From Mytilus trossulus (lineage: Eukaryota), in contig NC_086376.1 of NCBI RefSeq assembly GCF_036588685.1, forward strand, positions 26,412,001 to 26,476,000: a stretch of DNA of 64,000 nucleotides, read 5' to 3'. Positions 608-62,599 of the stretch are shown in pieces. The position numbers and the translations under genes were made by a program. The stretch's first letter is position 1; each line of letters begins with the position of its first letter. The notes under the pieces are model-generated. The model was not told the DNA's origin, did no database searches, and saw only the letters and a program-made list of their open reading frames with translations.

Positions 608-665
608 GACTATTAATGACGTTAAAATACTAAATCCCTGTGATGTGTTTTAGTCGATTTTAGTC
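608..665 (+). promoter_or_regulatory. SECIS element (selenocysteine insertion sequence)
   Basis: Helix I GACTA/TAGTC; core ATGAC(616-620)/CGAT(655-658); 10-bp helix II GTTAAAATAC/GTGTTTTAGT; apical AAA 632-634. Confidence 0.75.
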
Positions 666-7938: not shown

Positions 7939-8494
7939 TAAAATTGAGAATGGAAATGGGGAATGTGTCAAAGAGACAACAACCCGACCAAAATAAAAAA
8001 CACAACAGCAGAAGGTCACCAACAGGTCTTCAATGTAGCGAGAAATTCCCGCACCCGGAGGCGTCCTTCAGCTGGCCCCTAAACAAATATATACTAGTTC
8101 AGTGATAATGAACGCCATACTAATTTCCAAATTGTACACAAGAAACTAAAATTTAAATAATACAAGACTAACAAAGGCCAGAGGCTCCTGACTTGGGACA
8201 GGCGCAAAAATGCGGCGGGGTTAAACATGTTTGTGAGATCTCAACCCTCCCCCTATACCTCTAACCAGTGTAGAAAAGTAAAAGCATAACAATACGCACA
8301 TTAAAATTCAGTTCAAGAGAAGTCCGAGTCTGAAGTCAGAAGATGTAACCAAAGAAAATAAACAAAATGACAATAATACATAAATAACAACAGACTACTA
8401 GCAGTTCACTGACATGCCAGCTCCAGACTTCAATTAAACTGACTGAAAGATTATGATTTCATCATATGAACATCAGGCACAATCCTTCCCGTTA
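7939..8494 (-). mobile_element. Family C repeat, 5'-truncated insertion with twister-like motif
   Basis: Near-identical inverted copy at 59791-60157; flanked by GTTAAA (7937-7942, 8491-8496); empty site at about 14452-14457. Confidence 0.88.
8176..8266 (-). ncRNA. Twister-like ribozyme, P5-permuted, best-preserved copy
   Basis: P5 GGTTAGAGGT/GCCTCTGGCC; P2 GGGG/CCCC; GAGGG; T^AA; GC; P3 CGCA/TGCG; P4 CCTG-TCCCAAGT-CAGG. Confidence 0.75.
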
Positions 8495-11194: not shown

Positions 11195-11238
11195 GCGTCC
11201 CTGATGAGTCTTGTGTAGACGAAACGCGCGTCTGGCGT
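11195..11238 (+). ncRNA. Type I hammerhead ribozyme in a retrozyme fragment (about 11150-11271)
   Basis: CTGATGA-GTCT..AGAC-GAAACGCGCGTC intact; closing pair of stem I mutated; fragment absent from the paralogous site near 3620. Confidence 0.85.
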
Positions 11239-24051: not shown

Positions 24052-24095
24052 ACGCCAGACGCGCGTTTCGTCTACATAAGACTCATCAGTGACGC
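24052..24095 (-). ncRNA. Type I hammerhead ribozyme, intact, in a retrozyme fragment (about 24018-24147)
   Basis: Reverse complement is identical to the 35490-35533 motif. Confidence 0.9.
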
Positions 24096-25370: not shown

Positions 25371-26015
25371 GTAAGTTTGAAAGATTTATGTTATTTTGAA
25401 ATAGAAGTAATGAAAAAAAATCGGAATTTTTGATCTTTTATATACTAGTAGAATGTTTTGTCAAGACGCTAATATAAAACATGTACAATTAAATCAAAAG
25501 ATTTATCCATTTGCTTTACGTTTTGCAGATCATGCAAAAATTACATGTATCGATGTTACGGTGGAAATTTTATTTAATTAAGAGTATATGATAATCCTGA
25601 AGATTTGGAAACCTTAAATTAGTACAAAACTCTGTGTGCGGTATTTAACTTTCAGATAGGATAAAAATTGTTACGATGACAGGAATATTTTTCAATATAG
25701 GACACAGCTGGAAAGAGAACGAACACGTCTTAGGAGTAAAATACTGATAATGTAAATACAACCCTTATGGTCATAGAATTTTATTTGATGACAAACTGAT
25801 TATGTCGGTATAAAGGGATCAAATTTTCCAATAACGTCTTAAAGTTATCTTTAGTGAGTTAAAGAGAAAGGGATATATCATATAGGTAAATTTCATTATG
25901 ATAGAAATACAAAGCAGATGAGTACATACAATTTATTTCACATTTTCATAGTAAAATAAATTAATCTATTAATATGATATACTTTCAGTTAACGTCATTA
26001 CCTCCAAGTGGAAAC

Positions 26016-27302
26016 ATGCAACCAAAGATTCCACTTATTCTGTCGAGGCCACACGTGTGGTCTCATAATACAAATTATGTCGGTGCAGTTGGCCTACACA
26101 GTGAAAATAGTTCAGCTGCACGTGCTCGAACACTTAGTATAGATAAACGTTTGAATAAAGTCATATCTGTGCTAAAAGACATGGAAAGGAAGGATATACG
26201 AAAGATTGAAAAATCTAAACGTGATATAGAAAATTCCATGTTAGCATATAATGAAAAAATGAAACAAATAAATGCTTCTAAGCGACAAATTGCTAAATCC
26301 CCCGAACAATCAGATTCCAACAGTAATCATTCGACTTCGACTCTTGCTTCACCTGGCAGTTCTTCCGGAAGTGATAAATATTCACCTAGAACACGGAATG
26401 TGTCACCGGTTAAGAGTCGTAGAGTGTCTCTTCCAAAAATTGGACTTGGTACACCTAGAAACATCAATAAAAGAAGACTGTCTAGCGTTTCCGACAGCGA
26501 AGCATTGCCTAATTCGTTAAGTCAAAACAGATCACGATTATTGCAAGAAACCTCGTCACGATCGTTAACTTTTAGTGAAAATAAAAAATCTGATAAACAG
26601 ATGAACAAAACAGAAGATTGTGAAGACAACCATATTGAAATAAGCCCGTTTCCGTTTGAATCTTTTGATTACGGTAACTTGAAATATGGTACTGATGAAA
26701 AACCTACTATTTCGCAAAGGGATCGGCTTCACAGAAAAAGAATTAACTACAAGCAATTTCAAGATGAAAAAGAACTTGAACGTCAACGTATACTTATGAA
26801 GAAAAAACAATTACCCGAAAGTGATCCTTTTGACCATAGAAAAGAAATTTTACGTCAGCAGGCGGAAAATAAACGCGCTGCACTGCTTTTGGAGAAAGCG
26901 CGACAAGAGGCAGTGAAAAATAAGAAAGATGTATGTAATTCTTTCTGTTATTCTTTTGCAATGGAAGAACTCATGAAAAAGTCTGATCCATTGGCATACA
27001 TTGCTTCAGAAAAAGACTTCATATCTAAAGTTGAAGTTGACAAAAATGGTACAATTAAACAAACACTTGGTCCTGCTGTGTTGACAATCATTGGTGTTGA
27101 TGAATTAAAAAATTATCAGGGAATGAGAATAAAATGGTCTGCAAAATACCGATCACATAATACAGAAGAAAATGAACAGTCTGGAGATAGTTTTCTTCCA
27201 CCAATAACAGTTGGAGGACAAAAATATAATTTTTCACGAGAGACCACTCGGGAGCATGAAAATCTCCATATTCATAGACTAGATTCTCAGTCAACCATAT
27301 CA
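26016..27302 (+). CDS. Main coding exon of an uncharacterised basic, Ser/Arg-rich, partly coiled-coil protein
   Basis: 1.3-kb open frame in AT-rich DNA; acceptor ACTTTCAG ends 25988; first ATG in context AACATG at 26016; phase-0 donor TCA|GTAAGT at 27303; no transposon motifs. Confidence 0.8.
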
Positions 27303-27964
27303 GTAAGTTAAATGGTTTGATGGTGTTTTATCTGTAATGTAAATTGTTGGTTGGTTTCTAAATGTAGTGAGGTTAGATACCTGCAAAACAGTAATGTATG
27401 CTCTAAACTACACAAAACAGTAATGCATGCTCTAAACTTACATTGACATGTAATCTATATCTCCTTTTATTCAAGATAATGGCATATCGAGAGATGGTTT
27501 GGTTACAAAAAGTTATCGATTCAAAAAAGCTTTACTTGCCATTATATACTTTAAAAATTTTGGAATACATGAAACTTAAAATATTGGGTCGTTTCACACT
27601 TAGAGCAATTCACACACATGGACACTGTTTATCATGCATCTAACCTCAATGATATATTTGGTGCAGTTTGTAGTTTTGAAGAATTCAGGGATATACTAAT
27701 ATTGAAACTTATTGTTGGTGCTGGTTAAGATAGTATTGCTTGAATTGTTATATTTCTGCAATTTAACTTTACAAAATACCTAAAAACCAATTATACTTGT
27801 GTTTGTATACGCGTTACATTTGATAGTTTATATTTTAACAAAAATTAAGAAACAAAAATATTTCATTTCATGTTATTCGAAATTTATATAAAGGAAAATT
27901 TATACTGGTATTATTAACGTTACGGGTCCTTGTTTTTTTTTCACAAAAGTTTGGTTTTAAGGGT

Positions 27965-35489: not shown

Positions 35490-35533
35490 GCGTCACTGAT
35501 GAGTCTTATGTAGACGAAACGCGCGTCTGGCGT
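35490..35533 (+). ncRNA. Type I hammerhead ribozyme, intact
   Basis: Stem I GCGTCA/TGGCGT, CTGATGA, stem II GTCT-TATGT-AGAC, GAAA, minimal stem III AC-GCGC-GT, GUC cleavage triplet. Confidence 0.93.
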
Positions 35534-35844: not shown

Positions 35845-35888
35845 GCGTCACTGATGAGTATTATGTAGACGAAACGCGCGTCTGGCGT
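35845..35888 (+). ncRNA. Type I hammerhead ribozyme, one stem II mismatch
   Basis: Core intact; stem II reads GTAT/AGAC. Confidence 0.88.
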
Positions 35889-39859: not shown

Positions 39860-41115
39860 TTCGTTTCTGTGTGTGTTACATTTTAATGTTGTGTCGTCAT
39901 TCTCTTATATTTACTGCGTTTACCTCGGTTTTAATTTGTGACCAGGATTTGTTTTTTTTCTATCGATTTAAGAGTTTTGAACATCGGTATACTACTGTTG
40001 CCTTTATTTATCAGCAGATTAAGCAGCTAGGTTCTTACTTAAAGATAGATTATAAAACAAAATCTGACATAAATATCCAATTTTATATTGAAACAGATTT
40101 AAGCTTCACTTAATGGGTCGAACGTATGTTTTTCGAAACTTGACACCAAACATTAAAATGAGCGTGTAGATGGAAAAACAACGCCATGCCAATTAAGGAC
40201 AAATGATCACAAATTCCTTTGTGACGAACTTAACACTGACTAGCTAAATAGAGGCAACAGTAGTGTACCGCTTTTCGAAATTCAGAAATCGATATTGAGA
40301 AAAAAATCATCCTGGTTTCAAACTAAAACTGAGTGAAACACAACAAAAATAAGAGGAGAACAACGACACAACAGAAACACAACACTAAAATGCAACACAC
40401 ACAGACAAAAATTCTATAATAATATACCAATGACAATTTTCCTGACTTGGTACAGGAGATTCTAAGAATGGTGGATTGAACCTGGTTTTGCAGCTAGCCA
40501 AACCTCTCACTTATATGGCAATATTAAATATAACACTAAAATGACACCATTACATGACAAGAATACAGTTCAAATTAATTCAAGAAAATTTAGGGCAGGA
40601 AATTAGTCAAAGAAACAATACAATATAGTACATTTCGACAACGAAACAACAGAAACACTGAAGTGAACAAAAACAAAAAACAATGCAACACAAACAGAAA
40701 CAAACTATTCGACAACAATTGTAATTGTTCTTACTTGGTACAGGACATGCTTTTAGAAGAAAGAAAAAATGGTTGATTGAAACTGTTATTGTGGCTAGCC
40801 CAACCTCCCGATTTATATCCATTTTATTTGAAAAGTAATTTTTTGTAAATTTGTCTTGGCATCAGAATCCGGGAACATGTTTGAGACAGAATTGCATTTT
40901 AGAAACAATACTCAAATGATGACGTTCCATATACATTAAACAAAATGGAACAGGTAAATAAAGACAACTGAAGTATACCGCTGCTAAAAAATCATAAATC
41001 GATTGAGAGAAACAAATCCGGCTTACAAACTAAAACAGCGAGAAGCACATCAACTATAAGAGGAAAATAACGAAATAACAGAACACAGAAGTGCAACAAA
41101 AGAAACAAACAGCTA
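39860..41115. repeat. Cluster of family E repeat fragments in both orientations
   Basis: Terminus AAAGGCAACAGTAGTATACCG and variants at about 39985-40008, 40250 and 40960; also near 33875, 38048 and 60720-61062. Confidence 0.7.
40430..40521 (-). ncRNA. Twister-like motif, family E variant
   Basis: GAGGT with loop TACCAAGT; CAA-TCC-AC; CCTG/CAGG. Confidence 0.55.
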
Positions 41116-41263
41116 ACACATGTATTTGCAGGGGAATTTTTATACACAGTATTTCGTTCGTATGGACAAGATTTCTTATCTTATAATAAAACAAATGATT
41201 AAAGTAAAAAATACATGCCTAACTTATGAATAATTTAGATTTAAACTTGCTTGAGCGTGTTCA

Positions 41264-42803
41264 TGTAAAAGGTGATTTCTGGACAGTCAAATAATAACAA
41301 GTCCAATTCATCTTAGTCTAGGGTTCTTTATTCAACAATGATGTAATCATATAATTATTACAAACCCTACAAAATATAACAAGATACATATTAAACACAT
41401 TAATCTAAAACTACTATATTATACTGTGTTACAGTTATTATACCATTACTGCAGATCAACATAAAATCAGAACATTGAATGTTTATAGTTCTTATACAAT
41501 ATCAATACACAAGGTGACATGACATGCCTGATGATAATTAACACTTGCAAATATTCACTCATCGTTCATATACAATCATCAGCTTTGACAATTAAACATA
41601 CTACTATAATGTCAAGATCATATAACACTATTTCAATTAACTAAATAGATATATGTAAATCCATATTCTACAAATAACCATAGCATATATATCAACGGTA
41701 GATAACTCTATATTATATCAAATGTTCTTCACTGTCTTACATGAACACTATATATTATGCTATTTCAAGTATACATAAACTCACCAGTCTGTGGAACTGA
41801 GTTTAATAACTAACATCGACAGTCTACACAATATTAACAGTAACGATCTTCATACTTCTACAGTAATGGTAACAGAGGTTCACATCAAATATGGTTCTGT
41901 AAACAATGTATGACAATAATAAGTAATCTGACTTTAATATCTTAAAGGCATTATACAATTCATAATAAATTATACTAATCTTTATCTTTCATCTCGAATT
42001 CACAATTATAAATATAAGTAATCTTATTTCAATACTAAAAACATTAAGTACAAGTACAATTGTACTGTTAATTACATCACATTGGATATACCAATGTCAT
42101 TTCATGACTACATGACAAAAGGTCAAGGTCATTCATAAAAATAGATTAAATCTCTCTTTCTAACATTTATACTAAAATCTCTCAAATAAATCAGATTCAA
42201 ACAACACTCAAAGCACACTCTTTCATAGGGCTGGGAAGCTTACCAAAATGAATGTAATAAACATTCATTTTAAAGTTATGGATCCAGTTCATCCAAGACA
42301 CCTCAAAGAGTACAAAATGTAACTTACCATATAAAGTCATGATGTCCTGTTCCAGAATGAATTCCTTCACTATACTAATCCATAGATCTTATGGAACTAC
42401 TAATCAAACACAATATAGTCTATGAGCACAAAGTGCATCAAAACATACGAATATATCAGGATCACAACAAAGACATCAATCCTCCATTACTGTTTTCAAA
42501 ACTACCACCAAAACTGGGGGCAAGGCTTAATAAACCAATCAGAATACAAGAAAACCTATACACTCTAGTGAACAGTGAGTACTGATAGTAAAATCAATAA
42601 TAGGTAAATGCTACAAGGTAAACAGTTATATTAAATGGATCAATGAATAATCAATAGGCAATCAATAGGCAATCAATAGAATAAAGGTAAACTAAGTAAA
42701 CTACTCTGCAAATGAAAGAATATAATAAATGGTGTCTCAGAATAACCTATTAAACATATAAAATATATAAATGATTAATATGATAAAAATCCACTCTACC
42801 ACA
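41264..42803 (-). repeat. 3' LTR (1540 bp)
   Basis: Preceded on the minus strand by the polypurine tract; minus-strand AATAAA at 41327-41332; AATCAATAG(GC) x3 repeat near 42648-42680. Confidence 0.97.
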
Positions 42804-42817
42804 TCCTCCCCTCTGTT
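42804..42817 (-). other. Polypurine tract
   Basis: Minus strand AACAGAGGGGAGGA directly abutting the 3' LTR. Confidence 0.9.
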
Positions 42818-42889
42818 GGAGAATGTCTTCCATGACATCACAAATATCTCTCCTCCTCCTGAGAAAAAATATGACGTCCTCGTAATCAA

Positions 42890-45800
42890 TCACTTCTCAG
42901 TCGCAATCTTCAAAAGGCCTGCTAGAATCTGGTCCTCCATGCCTTTGAATGTACCGCTAGAAGCAATATCCTTCAGATAATCTGCTCTACTCTTCCAGTC
43001 AGGTTGTGGCTGACTCTTCTTGGATACTACAAAATCCTTATACTTCGTGGTAGCTGTCAATGTTCTGGCACGTACAGATCTTCTCGGTTGAACTTCTATC
43101 CATGGTGCTTCAATGTCCGGTTGAGGGACATTATCTACTGTTTCATCAACAGTCCTGTCTTGCCCAGGTTCCTCTGTATCATCAAATAATGTAGCGTCAG
43201 CTACTTGTTGATCGGTCTCTGACACTTCATCAAGCTCAAGTACTGGATCAACTGTATCATTCTTTTCAGATGGAAGGTCGTCACCCTCAATTCCAGTATC
43301 TTGCTGTTCAGCAACGTGTTCCTGATCGTCATCATCCTCGTCCTGAACGGTATCATCATCATCCTGAGTTTCTAACTCATCAAAAGTACTATGTGGAGCA
43401 CTTAAGTCTTCAACGTCAGGTTCTGTAACCACATAAACCAAATAATCGTCATCACTTTCTTCATCAGAACTTGTCAGAGTGCTATCATGAAGACTTGGCG
43501 TTGGTTGTGGATCTGTTTCTCTATTCTTCCTGGGTCTTAATCGTGGTGCAGGAGTAGGTCTAGGCTTCTCCTTTTCTTCATCTTCATCGATGGAAACTGA
43601 ACCAATAGGTAACAGTAGGTTCCTATGTAAGGTTCTCTTTCTTCCATGTCCGCTTTCCTTCCTAACTGTAAAGACTGGGATAGTGGAGTTAGGTTGATCT
43701 AATATGACGTAGCTGTCATTCTCCCATTTATCAGATAGCTTGTGCTTTCCATCGAAACTCAGAATCTTTACGAGTACTCGGTCGCCTGGAAGTAATATGG
43801 CTCCACGCACTTTGTTGTCATAATGTTTCTTCTGACGTCCTTGAGCTATCTTTGCTGAATTCGTAGCTAACTCATACGATTTCTTCAGTCTTTCTTTTAA
43901 ATTCTCAACATACTTCGTATTTGTCTTCTGTTCTTTCGTTGTTTCTATTCCTAGTGCAAGATCTATAGGCAGGCGTGGTTCTCTGCCAAACATCAGAGCA
44001 AATGGTGAAAATCCTGTCGTTTCCTGTTTTGTGCTGTTATATGCGTGAACAATTGGACCTAGGTATGATTTCCAATCTGCTTTCTGATGATTCTGTAATG
44101 TGCCAAGCATACTCAATAAAGTGCGATTGAAACGTTCGCATTGGCCATTACCCATGGGATGGTATGGTGTTGTTCTTGACTTCTTGACACCAGTTATACT
44201 GCAAAGTTCTTTCATCAAACGACTTTCAAAGTTTCCTCCTTGGTCCGAATGTATGCGTTCTGGAAGACCATAGTGTACCACGTAGTTATTAAAGAACGCT
44301 TCTGCTGTTGTTCTTGCACTCATGTTCCTAGTTGGTATCGCCTGTGCGTATCTTGTAAAATGGTCGGTTATTACTAAGATGTGCTGAAAACCACCTTTCG
44401 AAAGTTCTAGTGTAAGGAAATCCATACAAACAATTTCCATTGGTTGTATTGTTCGGATGTTCGTCAATGGAGCTCTTTGGTTGGGTAGCTGTTTTCTTTT
44501 TAAACATCTTGGGCATTTCTGTATCCACTCTTCAATATCCTTCGTCATTCCATGCCAATAAAATCTGTCCTTCACTAAAGATGTTGTCCTATCACGACCT
44601 TGATGACCCATGTCGTTGTGAAGAGAACGTAGAATTGATGTTATCTGTGAAGTTGGTAAGACAAGCTGATCTTTTGTGTCTCCATTAACAGTTGTTCTAC
44701 GATAAAGGATTCCATTCTGTATAACCAGTTTGTCAAAGTTGGCGAAGAGCTGGTTATGTGCAGGTGAAGACGGTATATCTTCCTTTCGTGGTTTCTGTCT
44801 ATGCGATAGATAATCTATCCAAGTTCTTATCACTGGATCACGTAGTTGCTCTTCTCTGATGTCGATCTTTGTGGTTGATGCTGTATCCACTTTACTAGCA
44901 AGATCCTTTGTAGTTACTGCAAGACATTCTACATATGGTTGTTGTTGTATCGAACTACAAATAGCTTTCACACTCTCTGTTGAGATGTTTGTTGGATCTT
45001 TAATACTTTCTTTTCCATGTATATCCGGTGTGCAATCTTGTTGACTGATAATCGCTGGCAATCTAGATAATCCATCAGCGTCGGCGTTGTTACGGCCTGG
45101 TCTGTATATGATGTTAAAATCAAAGGCAGCTAAAGCAGCAATCCATCTGTGACCTGTCACATCAAGCTTCGCAGACGTCAATACATACGTTAATGGATTA
45201 TTATCTGTGTAGACGGTAAACTTGTTTCCCTGCAGATAATCTCCAAACTTCTCTGTTACTGCCCACTTTAGTGCTTGGAATTCCTGTTTATGGACTGGGT
45301 AATTCCGTTCTGTCTTTGAGAGACCTCGGCTGGCATAGGCTATAACTCTCTTGTGTTCTCCCTGTTGCTGGTATAAAACGGCTCCAAGTCCTGTCTGACA
45401 TGCATCGGTGTGCACTTCGAAAGGCTTCTTGTAGTCAGGAAAACCAAGAATCGGCGGTGATGACAAGTGCGACTTCAATGTCTCAAAAGCTTCATTCTGT
45501 TCTTTGTTCCAGTGCCAAGATGTTGGTTCTATTGGTTTCTTCTTTCCTCTTGTTTTCTTTTTACATGTCGTTGGCATCAAATCTGTTAAGGGTCGTGCAA
45601 TCTTTGAAAAATCCCTGATAAATTTCCTGTAATAGCCAACAAATCCCAGGAACTGGCGTACTTCTTCTGGGGTCTTTGGTCTTGGCCAGGTGGCTACTTT
45701 TTCCACTTTCTCAGGATCTGGCTCTACACCATCAGCAGAAACAATGTGTCCGATGTACTTAACTCTTCTCTGTAAGAATGAACATTTCTTTGGTGATAAC

Positions 45801-48367
45801 TTAAGTCCTACATCACGGAGTCTCTGGATAATTCTCTCTAGGCGTACAAGGTGTTCATCTATGGACTTCGAGAAGATAATAAGATCGTCTAGGTAGATGT
45901 AACATATACGTGTGTGTAAATCACCTAAGCATTCCTCCATGAGTCTTTGGTACGTAGCTGGTGCGTTGGAGAGTCCAAATGGAAGTCTGTTGAACTCGAA
46001 AAATCCTAACGGTCCAACGGTGAAGGCGGTGCGTTGTTTATGTTCCTCCTCAATCTCCACTTGATGGTACCCGCTCTTCATATCTAGCACTGTAAAATAT
46101 GTGTTGCCTCCTAAGGAATCCAGAATCTCTTCAATGCGTGGAAGCGCATATGAATCTTTAATGGTCTTTAGGTTAAGCTGACGGTAGTCTACACACATTC
46201 TAAGCTTTCCGTCCTTCTTACGTACTAATACTACATTCGATGACCAGGGTGAATGGGATCTTCTTATCACTCCTGCTGATAACAGTTGTTGCAAATGGTT
46301 ACGGACCTCTTCTAGCATAGATGGTGGTATTCGTCTGTGACGCTGCTTGAAGGGAACATTGTCTATCAAATCGATACGGTGACGTACTGCTGAAGTGTGT
46401 CCAATATCATCGTCTCCTTTTGAAAATATATCTTGGTATCTGTGTATGAGCTCTTTTCCTCTTTCATAGTCATCATCAGTTAGATCATCCATCGGTAATT
46501 TAATGTCCTTCATGATATCTTTAAATTCTTTTTCCTCCGGTGTAACAATATCTTCAATGTCAACTGGTTGAATTTCGCAAATGAGAGCTCGTGGTTGTAG
46601 TGTAACGGTTCTTGTTGTGACGTTTGGTATGTGTATTGGTATACTTCCTCGTTGTTGACAATCGTAAGTTATTACTGTTGGCATGATATCTAAATCTTCT
46701 GGTAAAGCTGAATTAATAGTTGGTTGTAGTATAGCACACATTTGTTGTTGTTGAAGCTGTTTGTCCAAATATCCATTGATTACAACTTGAGAGTTAGCTG
46801 GTATTGTAATCGCGTGTGTTTCGGCGGATTTCACAACTGCTAATCGGTTATGACATCTTTCCAATTCCTTGTTTCTAAGATTCATGCATCGGAATGCCAA
46901 ATACCATGGAGTGTGTAGATTAGCTTCTTGTAAATACCTTGGTCCAGTGTTCTGTTCTACTTCCTGCATTACAACTGACATGATGTTTGTTCCTATCAAT
47001 AATGGTACGGTTATGTTGTATTCGCTGTCCGGTATTACTAGAAATATGCCTGGATATGATGATCTTGTAGAAGATATTCCATGTAGTTGAAGGTCTGCTT
47101 CGATGTAACCAAGATAAGGCATTGATAGTCCGTCTGCACATTCTATCTTCAATATACGGGTAAGTGATTCAATCGGTGTAGATCTCATGTGTCTGTTGTA
47201 AAATGACTCGCTGATCGTTGAAACCGATGATCCTGTATCCAGCAATGCTTTTGTATCTATTCCATTTATGCTGATGGAAACTTCATTTGCCGGTCCGCAT
47301 AATCTATCTTCTTTGTTGTTTGTAGTTGGTGCTGATTGATAATCATTCGTAACTAGTTGATAATTCATGGCTCGATCAAATTTCCTAGAGTTATCCAGTC
47401 TTACTTTACATCCTATGGCAATATGGCCAAGTTGTCCACATCTCCAACATGTTTTCTGATGTTTCTCTCGTCTCTTATTCATATCCAATGGTCTATATGC
47501 TATAGTTTCATCTGGTGTTTGATGTATCATATTTGTCCTGTTAAGCTTACTGTTGTTGATCAATTGTTCTTGTCGTTTCTCTAAAAGTTCAATCTGTGAC
47601 ATCAACTGTTTAACTACAATCTCCATTTCGTTCTTATCCTTCTTCCTTGGTGCATTCACTCTCTTAGCTGGTATAGGTTTCTTTTGACTAGGTGTGTTCT
47701 CTTTGGTATATTCCTTCTGTTGATGTTCCAATTCTCGCATCGCCAATAAAAGATGGTTGAAATCCTTGATCGTATCAAACTTGTATCCTGAAATTCTCTT
47801 GAGTTCCGGTTTTAATCCTTTCCAAAACATTGATCGTAACATATCTTCTGCATCTTCCTCATAAATCTTTCCTTGACGGCGTGCTTTGTTGTAAATGTCT
47901 TCTAAGCGACATCCCCAGGTGGAAACATCTTCATCTTGTTCCTGTCTGGCTGTGTAAAACTGTGCCAATAACGCTTCCTTTGGATCTACAATTCCATAAA
48001 TACTATCCATCTTGTCGATGATGTCGTCGACAGTAGCTTTAGGGCCTAATCGCATGACTATCTTGCTAGGTTCTCCTCTAAGTGAACGTCTAATGGCCTG
48101 AGCAATTACTTCATGTGCATAGTTTTCTATGATAAGACATAACACTTGGTACCTCCATACTTCATAGGTGTTGTCTCCTTTATTGTCTCCGGAGAAGGTA
48201 GGAATCTTTGGTATATATCCAGTATATAATGATTTCTGATGTGAGAACTCCTTCATCCAATCTTTAAATGCATCTGGAGATTCTGCATTTGGCTTCATAT
48301 GCATATCCTTGAAGGCAGCAATGATGTTCCGAACTTCCTCTTCTGTTAAATCAACTGATGTATCCAT
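42890..48367 (-). CDS. Gag-Pol polyprotein: PNMA-like capsid, CCHC zinc knuckle, aspartic protease, RT, RNase H, integrase, acidic C-terminal tail
   Basis: Frame open 42890-48535; likely start MDTSVDL at 48367; motifs CWRCGQLGHIAIGC, LLDTGS, LPFGLSNAPATYQ, YLDD, TDACQTGLGAVL, HNDMGH...CPRC, MDF...SDQG...E. Confidence 0.95.
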   Translation of the reverse strand: MDTSVDLTEEEVRNIIAAFKDMHMKPNAESPDAFKDWMKEFSHQKSLYTGYIPKIPTFSGDNKGDNTYEVWRYQVLCLIIENYAHEVIAQAIRRSLRGEPSKIVMRLGPKATVDDIIDKMDSIYGIVDPKEALLAQFYTARQEQDEDVSTWGCRLEDIYNKARRQGKIYEEDAEDMLRSMFWKGLKPELKRISGYKFDTIKDFNHLLLAMRELEHQQKEYTKENTPSQKKPIPAKRVNAPRKKDKNEMEIVVKQLMSQIELLEKRQEQLINNSKLNRTNMIHQTPDETIAYRPLDMNKRREKHQKTCWRCGQLGHIAIGCKVRLDNSRKFDRAMNYQLVTNDYQSAPTTNNKEDRLCGPANEVSISINGIDTKALLDTGSSVSTISESFYNRHMRSTPIESLTRILKIECADGLSMPYLGYIEADLQLHGISSTRSSYPGIFLVIPDSEYNITVPLLIGTNIMSVVMQEVEQNTGPRYLQEANLHTPWYLAFRCMNLRNKELERCHNRLAVVKSAETHAITIPANSQVVINGYLDKQLQQQQMCAILQPTINSALPEDLDIMPTVITYDCQQRGSIPIHIPNVTTRTVTLQPRALICEIQPVDIEDIVTPEEKEFKDIMKDIKLPMDDLTDDDYERGKELIHRYQDIFSKGDDDIGHTSAVRHRIDLIDNVPFKQRHRRIPPSMLEEVRNHLQQLLSAGVIRRSHSPWSSNVVLVRKKDGKLRMCVDYRQLNLKTIKDSYALPRIEEILDSLGGNTYFTVLDMKSGYHQVEIEEEHKQRTAFTVGPLGFFEFNRLPFGLSNAPATYQRLMEECLGDLHTRICYIYLDDLIIFSKSIDEHLVRLERIIQRLRDVGLKLSPKKCSFLQRRVKYIGHIVSADGVEPDPEKVEKVATWPRPKTPEEVRQFLGFVGYYRKFIRDFSKIARPLTDLMPTTCKKKTRGKKKPIEPTSWHWNKEQNEAFETLKSHLSSPPILGFPDYKKPFEVHTDACQTGLGAVLYQQQGEHKRVIAYASRGLSKTERNYPVHKQEFQALKWAVTEKFGDYLQGNKFTVYTDNNPLTYVLTSAKLDVTGHRWIAALAAFDFNIIYRPGRNNADADGLSRLPAIISQQDCTPDIHGKESIKDPTNISTESVKAICSSIQQQPYVECLAVTTKDLASKVDTASTTKIDIREEQLRDPVIRTWIDYLSHRQKPRKEDIPSSPAHNQLFANFDKLVIQNGILYRRTTVNGDTKDQLVLPTSQITSILRSLHNDMGHQGRDRTTSLVKDRFYWHGMTKDIEEWIQKCPRCLKRKQLPNQRAPLTNIRTIQPMEIVCMDFLTLELSKGGFQHILVITDHFTRYAQAIPTRNMSARTTAEAFFNNYVVHYGLPERIHSDQGGNFESRLMKELCSITGVKKSRTTPYHPMGNGQCERFNRTLLSMLGTLQNHQKADWKSYLGPIVHAYNSTKQETTGFSPFALMFGREPRLPIDLALGIETTKEQKTNTKYVENLKERLKKSYELATNSAKIAQGRQKKHYDNKVRGAILLPGDRVLVKILSFDGKHKLSDKWENDSYVILDQPNSTIPVFTVRKESGHGRKRTLHRNLLLPIGSVSIDEDEEKEKPRPTPAPRLRPRKNRETDPQPTPSLHDSTLTSSDEESDDDYLVYVVTEPDVEDLSAPHSTFDELETQDDDDTVQDEDDDDQEHVAEQQDTGIEGDDLPSEKNDTVDPVLELDEVSETDQQVADATLFDDTEEPGQDRTVDETVDNVPQPDIEAPWIEVQPRRSVRARTLTATTKYKDFVVSKKSQPQPDWKSRADYLKDIASSGTFKGMEDQILAGLLKIATEK

Positions 48368-49885
48368 GATAATAGACAACTGATAAAAAATCAGTGCAAG
48401 AAAAAATAATCTGAAAGCAATATACTCAAAAGTCATGAGATATAATGCTAAAGTAAAATAAGAATTAGAGTGGTAAAAACAAAGATAGTAACCTGAAATA
48501 AGAATTGTCTGATTAACTATGTATGCATATACCAAATAACACTAATCTAATATTACAAAGTAATAAAACTAATAACTCACCCCTGCTTAGTAATTCATCT
48601 GTGTCTTCAATCACACATTCACTATGTTACCTGTGTGTGATCACAATACATCAATATGTGTACACCCAAAAGGTATACCTAGTACCAAGAACTAGAACTA
48701 CAAAGATGTACAACTATACAAACTCAGTCTCAAACACCAGTCACAATAACCAAACCAAATCAATAAATACCTGGTTCCTACAACTTCTAGTTGCTAAACT
48801 AAGTAATCCTGGTCTTCGTGAACTTTCGTCTATACTTACTTAATGTGGATATCTATTTCCACTATAAGCTTAAATATTTCTGACCGATGAACACTAAACG
48901 AAAGGACAACTACAACTGGGTATGGCTTACTTATTTACTAACCTGTTGTATTATGATATCTCAAATCATATAGTGCTACATGAATAATATGGCTTATTAT
49001 ACTTCTAATGTGTTCTGCTATAATGTGCCTTTTACCTGATGGTTTCCTCAAAAAGTCTTATGTAATGCTAAATGGGACTCGCTTTCGCTCACTTTTACAT
49101 ATACATATTTTATTCTTTATTACACAATTACAGAAATATCAATTTATATCTATATTGACACAATTTCAGATATAACAATATGACACAAAGTAATTACATT
49201 ATAGTTTCACCTAGTAACTAGTACAGTGTTACTTCAAATAACAATTAATAGAAATTCTAAAGAAAATATGCTCTAATTTTGAATGAAAAATGAACGGAAA
49301 AGATATTTAAAAGCCAAAATTTAAAGATAACTTTTGAATAAAAAAAAATATATTTCAAAAATATACACTAATCTGTGTCCACACTTTTGAAAAAAAATTA
49401 CACACCAATCTGTGTCCACACTTTTGAAGAAAAAAATTTTAGATTCACAAATGAAACAATCAAATGATTTTTTTTAAATATACACACAAAATTTAAAACA
49501 TGTAGTCTATATGTTCACTAAACAGTCTTTATCTGTATCTGTCAATACACACTAAAGTAGTAATTCTTTTCACAACTAATTATACAACTACTTTCCAAAT
49601 AATTTAAATACACTAAGTATTTCAAGTACACTACTATACACTGACAATAATTTACATATAAGTTTAAACAGTGTAGGTAATATATCTATTCAATGTCAAT
49701 CTAGTTTATTTATTTATTAATAATAATCACTCAGTTAGTCTTTATAATCGTATGTGATTAATACAGGTAAAATCTTTATATATTTTTCCACATATCGAAC
49801 CAATTACAAATAGTCAATATCTAGTACGGCTCATCATCTTTACAATAACTTCATCATATCTGCTGTACATGCCAGGTTCTTCGAA

Positions 49886-49898
49886 ACGTTGGGCGCCA
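49886..49898 (-). other. Primer-binding site, tRNA-Lys(CUU) type
   Basis: Minus strand reads TGGCGCCCAACGT one nucleotide after the 5' LTR, matching the first 13 nt of the tRNA-Lys1,2 PBS. Confidence 0.9.
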
Positions 49899-49899
49899 A

Positions 49900-51439
49900 T
49901 GTAAAAGGTGATTTCTGGACAGTCAAATAATAACAAGTCCAATTCATCTTAGTCTAGGGTTCTTTATTCAACAATGATGTAATCATATAATTATTACAAA
50001 CCCTACAAAATATAACAAGATACATATTAAACACATTAATCTAAAACTACTATATTATACTGTGTTACAGTTATTATACCATTACTGCAGATCAACATAA
50101 AATCAGAACATTGAATGTTTATAGTTCTTATACAATATCAATACACAAGGTGACATGACATGCCTGATGATAATTAACACTTGCAAATATTCACTCATCG
50201 TTCATATACAATCATCAGCTTTGACAATTAAACATACTACTATAATGTCAAGATCATATAACACTATTTCAATTAACTAAATAGATATATGTAAATCCAT
50301 ATTCTACAAATAACCATAGCATATATATCAACGGTAGATAACTCTATATTATATCAAATGTTCTTCACTGTCTTACATGAACACTATATATTATGCTATT
50401 TCAAGTATACATAAACTCACCAGTCTGTGGAACTGAGTTTAATAACTAACATCGACAGTCTACACAATATTAACAGTAACGATCTTCATACTTCTACAGT
50501 AATGGTAACAGAGGTTCACATCAAATATGGTTCTGTAAACAATGTATGACAATAATAAGTAATCTGACTTTAATATCTTAAAGGCATTATACAATTCATA
50601 ATAAATTATACTAATCTTTATCTTTCATCTCGAATTCACAATTATAAATATAAGTAATCTTATTTCAATACTAAAAACATTAAGTACAAGTACAATTGTA
50701 CTGTTAATTACATCACATTGGATATACCAATGTCATTTCATGACTACAAGACAAAAGGTCAAGGTCATTCATAAAAATAGATTAAATCTCTCTTTCTAAC
50801 ATTTATACTAAAATCTCTCAAATAAATCAGATTCAAACAACACTCAAAGCACACTCTTTCATAGGGCTGGGAAGCTTACCAAAATGAATGTAATAAACAT
50901 TCATTTTAAAGTTATGGATCCAGTTCATCCAAGACACCTCAAAGAGTACAAAATGTAACTTACCATATAAAGTCATGATGTCCTGTTCCAGAATGAATTC
51001 CTTCACTATACTAATCCATAGATCTTATGGAACTACTAATCAAACACAATATAGTCTATGAGCACAAAGTGCATCAAAACATACGAATATATCAGGATCA
51101 CAACAAAGACATCAATCCTCCATTACTGTTTTCAAAACTACCACCAAAACTGGGGGCAAGGCTTAATAAACCAATCAGAATACAAGAAAACCTATACACT
51201 CTAGTGAACAGTGAGTACTGATAGTAAAATCAATAATAGGTAAATGCTACAAGGTAAACAGTTATATTAAATGGATCAATGAATAATCAATAGGCAATCA
51301 ATAGGCAATCAATAGAATAAAGGTAAACTAAGTAAACTACTCTGCAAATGAAAGAATATAATAAATGGTGTCTCAGAATAACCTATTAAACATATAAAAT
51401 ATATAAATGATTAATATGATAAAAATCCACTCTACCACA
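49900..51439 (-). repeat. 5' LTR (1540 bp)
   Basis: Matches 41264-42803 at offset 8636; I saw only one mismatch (50749 A vs 42113 T); followed on the minus strand by the PBS. Confidence 0.97.
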
Positions 51440-51660
51440 TTCAGTGTCAGTTCAAAGCGAGACAATCATGACTAAAATAAGGATAAAGAATGAGCAGTGT
51501 TTTTAATGTGATATTCATACAGTATAGTAATATTATCACAATTATTAACTAATTAGTTTGTTTAGTATTCTAAAGTCTTAAATCTATTCAAATCTTAATA
51601 CTACCGCATTCACTGCAATAAATGCGCAATTGGGCAATTCAAAATGTATCTTCAGTGATT

Positions 51661-59790: not shown

Positions 59791-60157
59791 ATTTTAATGT
59801 GCGTATTGTTATGCTTTTACTTTTCTACATTGGTTACAGGTATAGGGGGAGGGTTGAGATCTCACAAACATGTTTAACCCCGCCGCATTTTTGCGCCTGT
59901 CCCAAGTCAGGAGCCTCTGGCCTTTGTTAGTCTTGTATTATTTAAATTTTATTTTCTTGTGTACAATTTGGAAATTAGTATGGCGTTCATTATCACTGAA
60001 CTAGTATATATTTGTTTAGGGGCCAGCTGAAGGACGCCTCCGGGTGCGGGAATTTCTCGCTACACTGAAGACCTGTTGGTGACCTTCTGCTATTGTTTTT
60101 TTATTTGGTCGGGTTGCTGTCTCTTTGACACATTCCCCATTTCCATTCTCAATTTTA
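59791..60157 (+). mobile_element. Family C repeat with twister-like motif
   Basis: Reverse complement of 7939-8307 at high identity. Confidence 0.88.
59832..59922 (+). ncRNA. Twister-like ribozyme, P5-permuted
   Basis: Same as 8176-8266 with one P5 mismatch; predicted cut 59875/59876. Confidence 0.73.
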
Positions 60158-62599
60158 CAATATAAAAAGAATGTCACATGCGATTTAGATACTGTTAAAA
60201 ATAATGATAAAAATTAAGACTGGATTTTTTGGTGAAGATAATGTAATAAGAATTGATCTTATAATTATGATGATAATGTAGAACTGCATAATAAATACTA
60301 ACCTACAAGTGTCCAAGAGAAACGCGGCGAAAAGAACGTCTGGTGCTTTCTAAATTCTCAACGATTTATTTTACGAAATTACCAGACATGAAAGATATAT
60401 GAAACCGCTGCTATTTAAAACCCAGCTCCAACAACGATTTAGGAGAAATACCGACATATGCAGATAATACTATTGATTACACAACTACTAACACAACTCT
60501 ATTTTAATATTCTTGAAATTGTAATAAAACACATCTAAAAACATAATCACCAACCTAATCTCGAATTATATCCAAATTTTTGTGGACTGTCCTAAATTAT
60601 TTTAGAAATTTGTTGTTATTCTGTGGTTATCATGTCGAAATGTACAATTATATTATCTTTTTTTTTTTTTTTTTTTTTATCTATTTCTATCGCCTCAGTG
60701 TTCTTGCATTTATTTGTACTGTATTGCTGTCGACCATGTAATGTTGTCATTTTGGTGTTATATTTAACATTGTCATACATGTAAAGCACGAGGTTTTGCT
60801 AGCCACAAAACCAGTTTGAACCCACCAATCTTTTTAAAATATCCTATACAAGTCCAGAATATGACAGTTGTTATCAAATAGTTCGTTTCTATGTATGTTG
60901 CATTGTCGTTTGGTTTTTGTTGCAATTCAGTGTTTCTACTGTTTCGTTGTTTTCCTCTTATAGTTAATGTGTTTACCTTAGTTTAGTTTGTAACCCGGAT
61001 TTGTTTTCGCCTAATCGATTCATGACTACTAAATATCGGTATACTACTGTTACCTTTATTTATATCTGGCAACTAAAGGGATTGTGGTTGATTTTCATAT
61101 GATGAAGACATCTTCTTTAGAAAATTCATATGATGAAGACATCATCTTTAGAAAAGCTTTGTTCTAATTGAGTCCTTGAGCTGGTATGACAGTAACTGCT
61201 AGAGTAGTCCTTTGTTAATTGATGTTCATTATTGTCTTTTTTTTTTATTTGTTCTGTAACCTGATTTAACATCGGAGTCGGACTTTCCAAACTGGGTTTA
61301 AATGGGAGTTTTGCTTGGTTTTTTTTATTCCACATTTGATTTTAGGGGGAAGTTTGAAACTTTCCGTGTTTAACCTTGCAGCATTGTTGTACCATTTCTA
61401 AGTCAGAAACCCATAATCTTTGTTAGTTTGGTGATTGTGTGTATGTGTTTTTTTTTAAATTTTATTTGTTTGTTTCGGAGTTTTGTATGGTATCCTAAAC
61501 AAAATTCAAATCGAAATTGTCAATGTCTGCAATAATAAAAAATAATGGGGAAAATATTACTCTGAGTATATCTAGCAAATGTAGTTAAACTTATGAATTA
61601 AGTGAAACTAGTTATAAAGTAAGTTAAGTAATGGTCTATTTTTGTTATAATGTTTTTGCAATTTAAAAAAATACAGTTTGGGTTATATATATTTTACTTC
61701 TATTGCATTATTAAATTTCTACAGTCACCTTGTCTGAACAGAATAATAAATTAATATACAAATTGGTGACCACTTTGGGCTCATCAAAATCTAGTTAAGC
61801 ACTAACGGAAGTTTTTTGTCATGACGTTTTCAATTGTTTTGTTTGTGTTTCTACTGAATAGAATACATACTACAAATTATTCCTTTTTACTAAGACCCAT
61901 CTGAGATATTTTTAAATTCCTCAGTCACAAAATATGTACATTGTTTTATTGTGCAACTGTTTCAAAAAGCTAGACAAGGTCTTATTAAACAATTATTATC
62001 TGAAATTTGATACAGTCTTCATGAGTGTTAAGTTTAACAAATGACTCTGTGAGCACGTATTTGTAATTTGATACCTCTTTCGTTTATAAGTAAGCATTTT
62101 CTAAATGACATGCATGTATTGTTGAATTTCTACATAAGTGGGAATAAATACAAATTAAAGTAGCATCAATAGTCTACAAAAAGCTTTGGAAACTTGCAAT
62201 TAGAGGCATAAGTACTTTTTCTAAATGCAAATCGCATAAGTTTCTTAGGGGGTACAAATTATTGTAAAAAAAAAGCAAACTATGGGAATCAGAAAAACAC
62301 TAAAAATATAGATACCGGGTAGTAAGTCAACACGCTATTACCAGTTATCTCAATGGATGCTGAATCAAAAACACAACAGAGTGTGTTGTTTTTTTTATAC
62401 TAAATTAAGCTCAGTGATGATTTTTCATGAAAAACAGAAGAAAAAAAACCAATACAAACAAGTGAACAAAAACCATTGACATCTTGAGGTTTACTATGGC
62501 CTTCAACAATTAATACAAATTTCGATACAATATGTCAATTCTATAAATCAAGAGTATATCCATTCCTCCTTAACATATCCTGTAAGTACATTTGCTTAG

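Follow-up and report, generated by a model that had tools for sequence, protein, structure and literature searches.

The SECIS hairpin and the repeat that carries it

The window analyzed here is a stretch of 64,000 nucleotides of the Mytilus trossulus genome (contig NC_086376.1, positions 26,412,001 to 26,476,000). Near its left end, on the plus strand, lies a SECIS hairpin at 608–665, to which the Rfam SECIS_1 model aligns over model positions 1–64, covering exactly these bases with 28.4 bits and an E value of 0.003 in a search of 961 bases. The curated gathering score of SECIS_1 is 35 bits; that the hairpin stays below it is a matter of the score threshold and not a structural failure, and no SECIS_1 score found in the window or in its relatives reaches this cut-off. 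The relatives score 27–33 bits (family B, described below, 32.8; locus L180, 33), and six of 16 loci scanned together matched. When the entire 64-kb window was scanned with Rfam, the SECIS at 608–665 did not reach an E value of 5.

Each part that a preliminary description of this DNA had ascribed to the hairpin is present where it was placed: helix I (608–612/661–665); AUGAC (616–620), the 5′ side of a non-Watson-Crick quartet, whose UGA is invariant in 19 of 19 aligned relatives; its quartet partner CGAU (655–658); helix II (621–630/645–654), in which 10 of 10 pairs form, three of them G-U; and an apical AAA (632–634), for which alignment A3 has one invariant A followed by an A that is at least 90% conserved. 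The apex also contains a weak 3-bp mini-helix (634–636/642–644). The features that define a SECIS, namely an RUGAN/NGAN quartet, a helix II of approximately 9–12 bp, and an unpaired apical AA 11–12 nt above the quartet, are thus found together; a position in the 3′ UTR of an open reading frame (ORF) with an in-frame UGA aligned to Cys is found for intact copies of the element and not for the copy in the window, which lacks an ORF. The region folds better than its shuffles (z = −3.07 for 608–665 and −5.02 for 590–690, with 0 of 200 shuffles equally good in either case). ViennaRNA is unable to model a non-Watson-Crick quartet, and the minimum-energy fold of 608–665 pairs UGAC with 653–656 rather than leaving the quartet, so a competing register exists.

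A custom SECIS descriptor matched the window three times on the plus strand and 0 times on the minus strand, and shuffles matched about once per strand; because one chance match is expected per 64-kb strand, the descriptor by itself is weak, and the case rests on context. That context begins with copy number. The exact 58-mer of 608–665 occurs 436 times in the 1.3-Gb genome (246 + 190) and its reversed control not once, so the hairpin does lie within a repeat with copies genome-wide, as had been proposed, and its core is conserved across them. We take the observation of a SECIS at 608–665 as confirmed; recoding itself is a prediction from the sequence.

The repeat is a 5′-truncated copy, at 585–1489 on the plus strand, of a young Naiad-type Penelope-like element (PLE) that we call Sec-Naiad family A. 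It contains the 3′ UTR and pLTR only, is 98.8% identical to an intact copy in L062, has a fixed 3′ end at 1489 and shows no visible TSD; the preliminary description was right that no Sec ORF accompanies it. At 17 of 19 other loci the sequence aligns to the window copy as a single block, from 581–585 to 1488–1499, with interruptions at the remaining two, and the 5′ ends vary. No contig among the public-contig matches listed joins both flanks across the insertion. The left flank (504–585) has a second copy 2.1 kb upstream (L024 6391–6472) that is 91% identical, which is a local duplication and not a TSD. Many public DNA contigs start at window positions 1288 and 1423 (L024 9289 and 9424), marking either a truncation hot spot or a junction with related families. 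Several 5′ truncation points fall in or right beside a SECIS (585, 8494 and 61078 in the window, the upstream pLTR of L062, and L135), and reverse transcriptase (RT) may stall there.

Other Naiad remnants are present in the window. Family B, which is 62% identical to family A and has four TGA codons and a Cys at CxC, is represented by a 3′ end at 7939–8494 on the minus strand (98.4% identical to L104) that starts inside the SECIS, keeps its 3′ arm at 8463–8494, and has an intact twister-like motif. A second family B 3′ end, at 59791–60157 on the plus strand (96% identical to L104), is truncated below the SECIS and also has the twister-like motif, and an older B-like 3′ end lies at 61078–61427 on the plus strand (70% identical to L104 over 61125–61427), with a SECIS 3′-arm remnant at 61078–61100. 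The minus-strand end and the older end had been assigned to a "family C" and suspected of retaining a SECIS 3′ arm only, which proves correct for both, the former being family B. Members of Cys-only families occur as well: a copy of an Mgal-like Cys-Naiad pLTR, with the twister-like motif, lies at approximately 40245–40594 on the minus strand, and the 3′ end of an L111-type Cys-only family, with neither SECIS nor twister-like motif, at approximately 2058–2261 on the plus strand. Within the L111-type 3′ UTR, some 70 nt of GC-rich sequence are conserved and may represent another structured RNA. At the beginning of their leaders, immediately beyond the fixed end (L062 1579–1640, L104 440–500), families A and B have a conserved motif in common; the same motif is visible by eye at the start of Naiad_Scon and is a candidate RT-initiation element.

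The parent element and its five UGA codons

Longer family A copies, approximately 99% identical to one another, lead into an ORF. Five intact 1001-aa ORFs were found (21 copies in 20 genomic stretches), each with no TAA or TAG and exactly five TGA codons. The complete unit of approximately 4.45 kb consists of a 422-nt leader, the ORF, the SECIS, the twister-like motif, and the fixed end, and many copies carry an upstream partial tandem (pLTR). In intact copies the SECIS begins 136 nt after the TAA, the predicted twister-like cut lies 712 nt after the stop, and the fixed 3′ end follows 305 nt further on, 1017 nt after the stop. The layout ORF-SECIS-ribozyme-terminus that had been deduced from the truncated copy is therefore the order found in intact ones, with the ribozyme predicted only, and the distance of about 470 nt given from the SECIS to the twister-like motif agrees with a motif that begins at 1137. 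The unit slightly exceeds the published range of Naiad bodies (3.4–4.4 kb), and its 5′ truncation and partial tandems fit a Naiad PLE.

The encoded protein (P0001) bears the marks of a Naiad: a CX4CxxC finger, GIY-YIG with CCHH, a KR-rich block at 207–230, CxC, DKA, and an RT. Neither a Pfam scan of P0001 nor a PDB sequence search with the family profile gave a match; a homolog that does carry PF01541 (P0007) is 35% identical to it over 929 columns, and an AlphaFold model (pLDDT 84.6) suggests telomerase RT as the nearest fold. The in-frame TGA codons are 52 (second Cys of the CX4CxxC finger), 83 (the Cys before GIY-YIG), 94 (first Cys of CCHH), 381 (first Cys of CxC, as U381-x-C383), and 519 (eight residues after DKA, which is 509–511). 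The preliminary description had recommended looking in full-length elements for in-frame TGA aligned to Cys, and all five stand at conserved-Cys columns: among 62 homologs Cys is found in 50 of 50, 48 of 52, 53 of 54, 61 of 62, and 58 of 61 rows that have a residue there, and some of the rows without Cys have Trp, where TGA was probably translated under a different code. The parent ORFs conserve these codons, TGA being retained at the five sites in 18/19, 20/20, 20/20, 23/23, and 24/24 genome copies. The same ORF, 100% identical and with all five TGA codons, occurs on an independent metagenome contig (L147), and public contigs from two organisms span the five codons unchanged; the TGA codons are therefore no assembly error. 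All 150 genome matches listed for the endonuclease part hold two to four TGA codons and belong to family A, to an older group (76–80%), or to the large family B. The host genome has two tRNA-Sec genes with anticodon TCA. We suspect that these Sec would serve as substitute metal ligands, and copies that are approximately 99% identical with TGA in place suggest that family A was active recently.

The association of SECIS and UGA extends well beyond this family. Metagenome loci with DNA numbered 80, the best 80 of 179, and the tree was built from 81 of 85 rows, leaving out L194, L197, L211, and L225, which are too short and all TGA-bearing. Every TGA-bearing row of the tree falls in one clade (FastTree support 0.962), and a protein tree gives a matching clade (support 0.983) with an all-Cys sister. 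The clade comprises 42 rows, or 32 lineages at 90% identity, 28 of them with TGA in the sequenced part. Across the 85 loci TGA occurs 10, 18, 20, 20, and 39 times at the five sites and at most twice at any other position. The same five sites recur in lineages down to 40% identity, with single sites alternating between TGA and TGY from lineage to lineage.

In an unfitted alignment of the SECIS of 19 relatives the UGA, the apical A, and the GA are kept while the sequence of helix II changes completely, with both-side changes in all 10 columns (59, vs 20 in shuffles) and pairing down to 42–53% in slid controls; since 17 of the 19 were picked by a descriptor that demands pairing, the pairing and covariation figures are inflated and the percentage paired is circular. 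Of 33 clade metagenome loci with at least 130 nt downstream, 31 have a SECIS behind the ORF according to a custom covariance model built from this alignment; 16 of the 33 are training rows and 17 were held out, 9 of the latter being near copies of training sequences. Matches were obtained in 15 of the 17 held-out loci and in six of the eight independent ones, four of these at E values of 0.004–0.05. The model found no SECIS in the independent clade loci L154 and L170 or in L211, a TGA-bearing fragment outside the tree. On the sense strand it found none in 37 Cys-only metagenome loci (22 of them with at least 300 nt downstream) and none in six Cys-only loci of the genome; in this genome, a SECIS is missing from two Cys-only Naiad families. 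A descriptor match in the Cys-only locus L215 (+397) was not recovered by the model and is taken as chance.

Sec-Naiads as such are already known: Craig et al. (2021; PMC8557442) described four families, from two clams and two spiders, with three or four UGA codons and a type I SECIS 1–21 nt after the stop. Like their clam Sec-Naiads, family A has an N-terminal GIY-YIG, CxC, DKA, a C-terminal RT, and a SECIS in the 3′ UTR, and UGA is shared at the Cys before GIY-YIG, at the first Cys of CCHH, and at DKA+8. By eye, the N-termini of the clam Sec-Naiads are far closer to family A than are those of the mussel Naiads of the same paper, and the clam elements would presumably have their place within the clade. 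Family A differs in its mussel host and in having five UGA codons, not three or four; one additional codon takes the place of the second Cys in the first finger and another that of the first Cys in CxC, the latter a site that the published account does not list. Its SECIS starts 136 nt beyond the stop codon, and most relatives have an apical mini-helix, whereas the published four lie at 1–21 nt and are called type I. The spider elements Naiad_Sdum and Naiad_Smim share with family A a multi-Sec ORF and a 3′ SECIS, and in Naiad_Sdum a Sec likewise replaces the second Cys of its CX2-5CxxC finger; unlike family A, both have a reduced IFD and (TA)n targeting (PMC8557442 supplement), and an independent origin has been proposed for them (PMC8557442). 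Two published Mytilus Naiads, neither of which is family A, are not marked as selenoproteins in that account. The L117 family of the present genome nearly matches the N-terminus of one of them, Naiad_Mgal; as far as L117 shows, the Naiad_Mgal/Naiad_Mcor type shares the host genus of family A, and it differs in being all-Cys, without a SECIS, and in a separate clade. New findings here are the five Sec, one of them in the CxC motif, the extent of the clade, and a twister-like motif that has covarying helices and pseudoknots and palindromes for P1. Our literature search, chiefly of openly accessible papers judged mostly by title, found none on mussel Sec-Naiads or on twisters in Naiads.

A twister-like motif in the 3′ UTR

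The twister-like motif, a P5-type permutation at 1137–1240 on the plus strand, is predicted from pair counts on 11 sequences and from descriptor matches. It comprises P5 (1137–1143/1234–1240), P2 (1155–1158/1187–1190), P3 (1193–1196/1203–1206), P4 (1207–1210/1219–1222), and the pseudoknots T1 (1161–1163/1212–1214) and T2 (1191–1192/1217–1218), and the predicted cut would fall between 1184 and 1185. Its order is the P2/G-A-N-N-N strand, U-A-A, P2, the T2 dinucleotide, P3, and then P4 with its loop. With twister (RF03160, RF02684) it shares the U-A-A site, P2, P3, P4, the loop U-C-C-Y-A-A-G-Y, the G-A-N-N-N strand, both pseudoknots, and the P5-type order; unlike twister it has no canonical P1 and is missed by the Rfam P5 model. 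The cleavage-site flanks oppose U-U to U-U, and two palindromes (1166–1173 and 1178–1183), candidate dimer contacts, occupy the expected place of P1, for which reason we file the motif as twister-like and not as a member of twister.

Over the 11 sequences 95.5% of cells are paired, with both-side changes in P2, P3, P4, T1, and T2 (31, vs 9 in shuffles, among rows that are related and one of which is misaligned in P4). The U-A cleavage site and the G-A strand are kept in 45 of 46 family A copies and also in relatives; the window copy has T at 1185, an A-to-T change at the conserved cleavage-site adenine that is private to it among 46 family A copies, and with that adenine lost its motif is likely dead. 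The fold of the window region is no better than that of shuffles (z = −0.76; intact copy, −1.75). Both palindromes vary in sequence yet stay self-complementary; for the first, self-complementarity is 100% in every one of the 11 rows, the changes being compensatory. For 11 of 12 distinct linkers, several of which are single-copy variants of one family, the homodimer is better than at least 98% of shuffles. As palindromes with paired centers cannot be hairpins, we infer pairing between two RNAs, and the replacement of P1 by palindromes suggests a dimer, in analogy to PLE hammerheads. The minimal type I hammerheads of PLEs and retrozymes cleave as dimers (PMC7229834, PMC6765202) and are, like the Naiad motif, small motifs in a tandem pLTR, although they belong to a different ribozyme class. 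The T-variants of Schistosoma Perere-3 (Liu et al. 2021, PMC8501958) have in common with the Naiad motif an association with retroelements, and are found at the 5′ end of an RTE element, whereas the Naiad motif is in the 3′ UTR/pLTR of a PLE. Craig et al. report no canonical hammerhead in Naiads, and their main text never uses the word "twister" (PMC8557442); a twister survey covers, in its accessible text, P1-type only and mentions bivalves once (PMC11662667). No dimeric twister was found in the literature, chiefly the openly accessible part of it.

Rfam scans of 560–1520 gave neither a twister nor a hammerhead match, and no hammerhead was found in the family B UTR. The twister-P1 model weakly matches the relatives L175 and L180 (23–24 bits vs a gathering score of 67), and Twister-P5, run over the genome, did not find the Naiad motif; its three weak matches are other, ordinary-looking twister remnants. 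Loci L229–L231, elsewhere in the genome, are ordinary P1-type remnants unrelated to the Naiad motif. By eye, the motif can be seen in the published consensuses of Naiad_Mgal, Bpla, Mphi, and Scon, the name Mgal being inferred from record order, and the pLTR of the Mgal-type Naiad holds the same motif as family A. A strict descriptor found none in six Sec-clade loci with more than 1 kb downstream (L158, L159, L161, L173, L178, and L198). We therefore reject the idea that the motif is specific to Sec families, given its presence in the Cys-only Mgal-like family and its apparent lack in those six loci. Nor is it supported that the predicted cut defines the 5′ ends of copies, which do not pile up at the site in families A and B: 12 of the 16 family A rows that carry a pLTR upstream cross it and four start below, none within 30 nt, and of 16 family B rows 11 cross it, one starts at −2, and four start below. 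In PAc, unprocessed RNA is the main template (PMC11167929), which fits copies whose 5′ ends cross the site and is no test of cleavage.

Interpretation and rival readings

We consider it very probable that a recently active Naiad family uses the hairpin as its SECIS and that intact copies read their five UGA codons as Sec, making a 1001-aa endonuclease/RT; the view taken in the preliminary description, that this is the 3′ UTR of a selenoprotein-encoding retroelement, is thus supported. A tandem copy would be transcribed through the leader, ORF, SECIS, and twister-like motif, and the SECIS would recruit the host Sec machinery so that the five UGA codons are read as Sec. Against this reading, decoding five UGA codons from one SECIS would be inefficient. 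Since the last UGA (codon 519) precedes the whole RT core, no RT would be made without recoding, and transposition would consequently follow selenium supply. Like the hammerheads of other PLEs, the predicted twister-like motif would probably act in processing tandem transcripts, and a cut at its site would keep the SECIS attached to the piece that has the ORF. Reverse transcription would likely start at a fixed internal point, as it does in Poseidon_Ac (PMC11167929), giving the fixed end at 1489 together with random 5′ truncation. The window copy would then be a passive product: RT would likely have halted at 585, which is 23 nt beyond the SECIS, so that the hairpin stands without an ORF.

Could the UGA codons be read by leaky insertion of Cys or Trp, or serve mainly as a translation brake, with the hairpin an inherited SECIS-like kink-turn that binds another protein? 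The free toggling between TGA and TGY among lineages, which implies that Sec is not required at any one site, the Rfam scores below the cut-off, and the single TGA retained by L168 would all sit well with such a reading. It is nonetheless improbable, because TGA is confined to conserved-Cys columns and because the quartet, the length of the helix, and the apical A's persist despite turnover of the stem sequence, with no SECIS in the Cys-only families. Still less likely is a chance look-alike in AT-rich repeat DNA combined with nonsense TGA codons of a dead lineage; the roughly one descriptor match per 64-kb strand in shuffles and the miss in the whole-window Rfam scan favor this, and we give it almost no credence, since copies approximately 99% identical imply recent activity with TGA in place, the five TGA sites are shared in lineages down to 40% identity, and the SECIS tracks the clade. 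The TGA positions that lineages have in common, along with covariation in their SECIS, already refute the look-alike reading.

A different question is the donation of SECIS elements to host transcripts, suggested in the preliminary description and already raised for truncated copies by Craig et al. (2021; PMC8557442), which stays speculative. The window copy itself might have been recruited to supply the SECIS for the mRNA of a host selenoprotein: it retains an intact SECIS just 23 nt in from its 5′ junction, and loss of the cleavage-site A would spare a read-through host transcript. Against this, the 8.5 kb examined upstream contain no convincing sense-strand coding exon and thus no host exon beside the copy, the nearest host-like ORF (25965–27308) is 24 kb downstream, and the copy, one of 436, shares 98.8% identity with intact copies. 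We regard co-option here as very unlikely.

Returning to a SECIS that serves the element itself, we can also consider a wider proposal, which we find possible and somewhat doubtful as a whole: that Sec-Naiads form one old, widespread clade of approximately 30 lineages, toggling between Sec and Cys at five metal-ligand sites, gated by selenium, and spreading SECIS elements by the hundreds through a genome, and that Naiads carry a circularly permuted twister with two palindromes in place of P1, one that cleaves as a dimer and would be a new architecture. A young, intact, high-copy family with five Sec, set in a clade of approximately 30 lineages, would provide a natural series for studying the reason that a transposon bears the cost of Sec, and the switching between Sec and Cys lets one ask whether selenium supply limits transposition. 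The 436 exact SECIS copies in one genome make host SECIS gain testable on an annotated assembly, and a further consequence is that UGA-bearing ORFs of this kind are being annotated as pseudogenes. Should the twister-like motif cleave, it would close the gap that Craig et al. pointed out when they saw no hammerhead among Naiads; should it depend on a partner, it would be a dimeric twister.

The remainder of the window holds other features. The ORF at 25965–27308, on the plus strand, is a Ser-rich open frame of 448 codons with no Pfam match, probably a large host exon. A young LTR retroelement at 41263–51440 has two 1542-bp LTRs that are 99.9% identical and, on the minus strand at 42893–48541, an uninterrupted frame of 1883 codons with protease, RT, RNase H, and integrase domains. 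Type I hammerhead matches lie at 11195–11238, 24052–24095 (minus), 35490–35533, and 35845–35888, within repeats of approximately 355 bp that resemble published Mytilus retrozymes.
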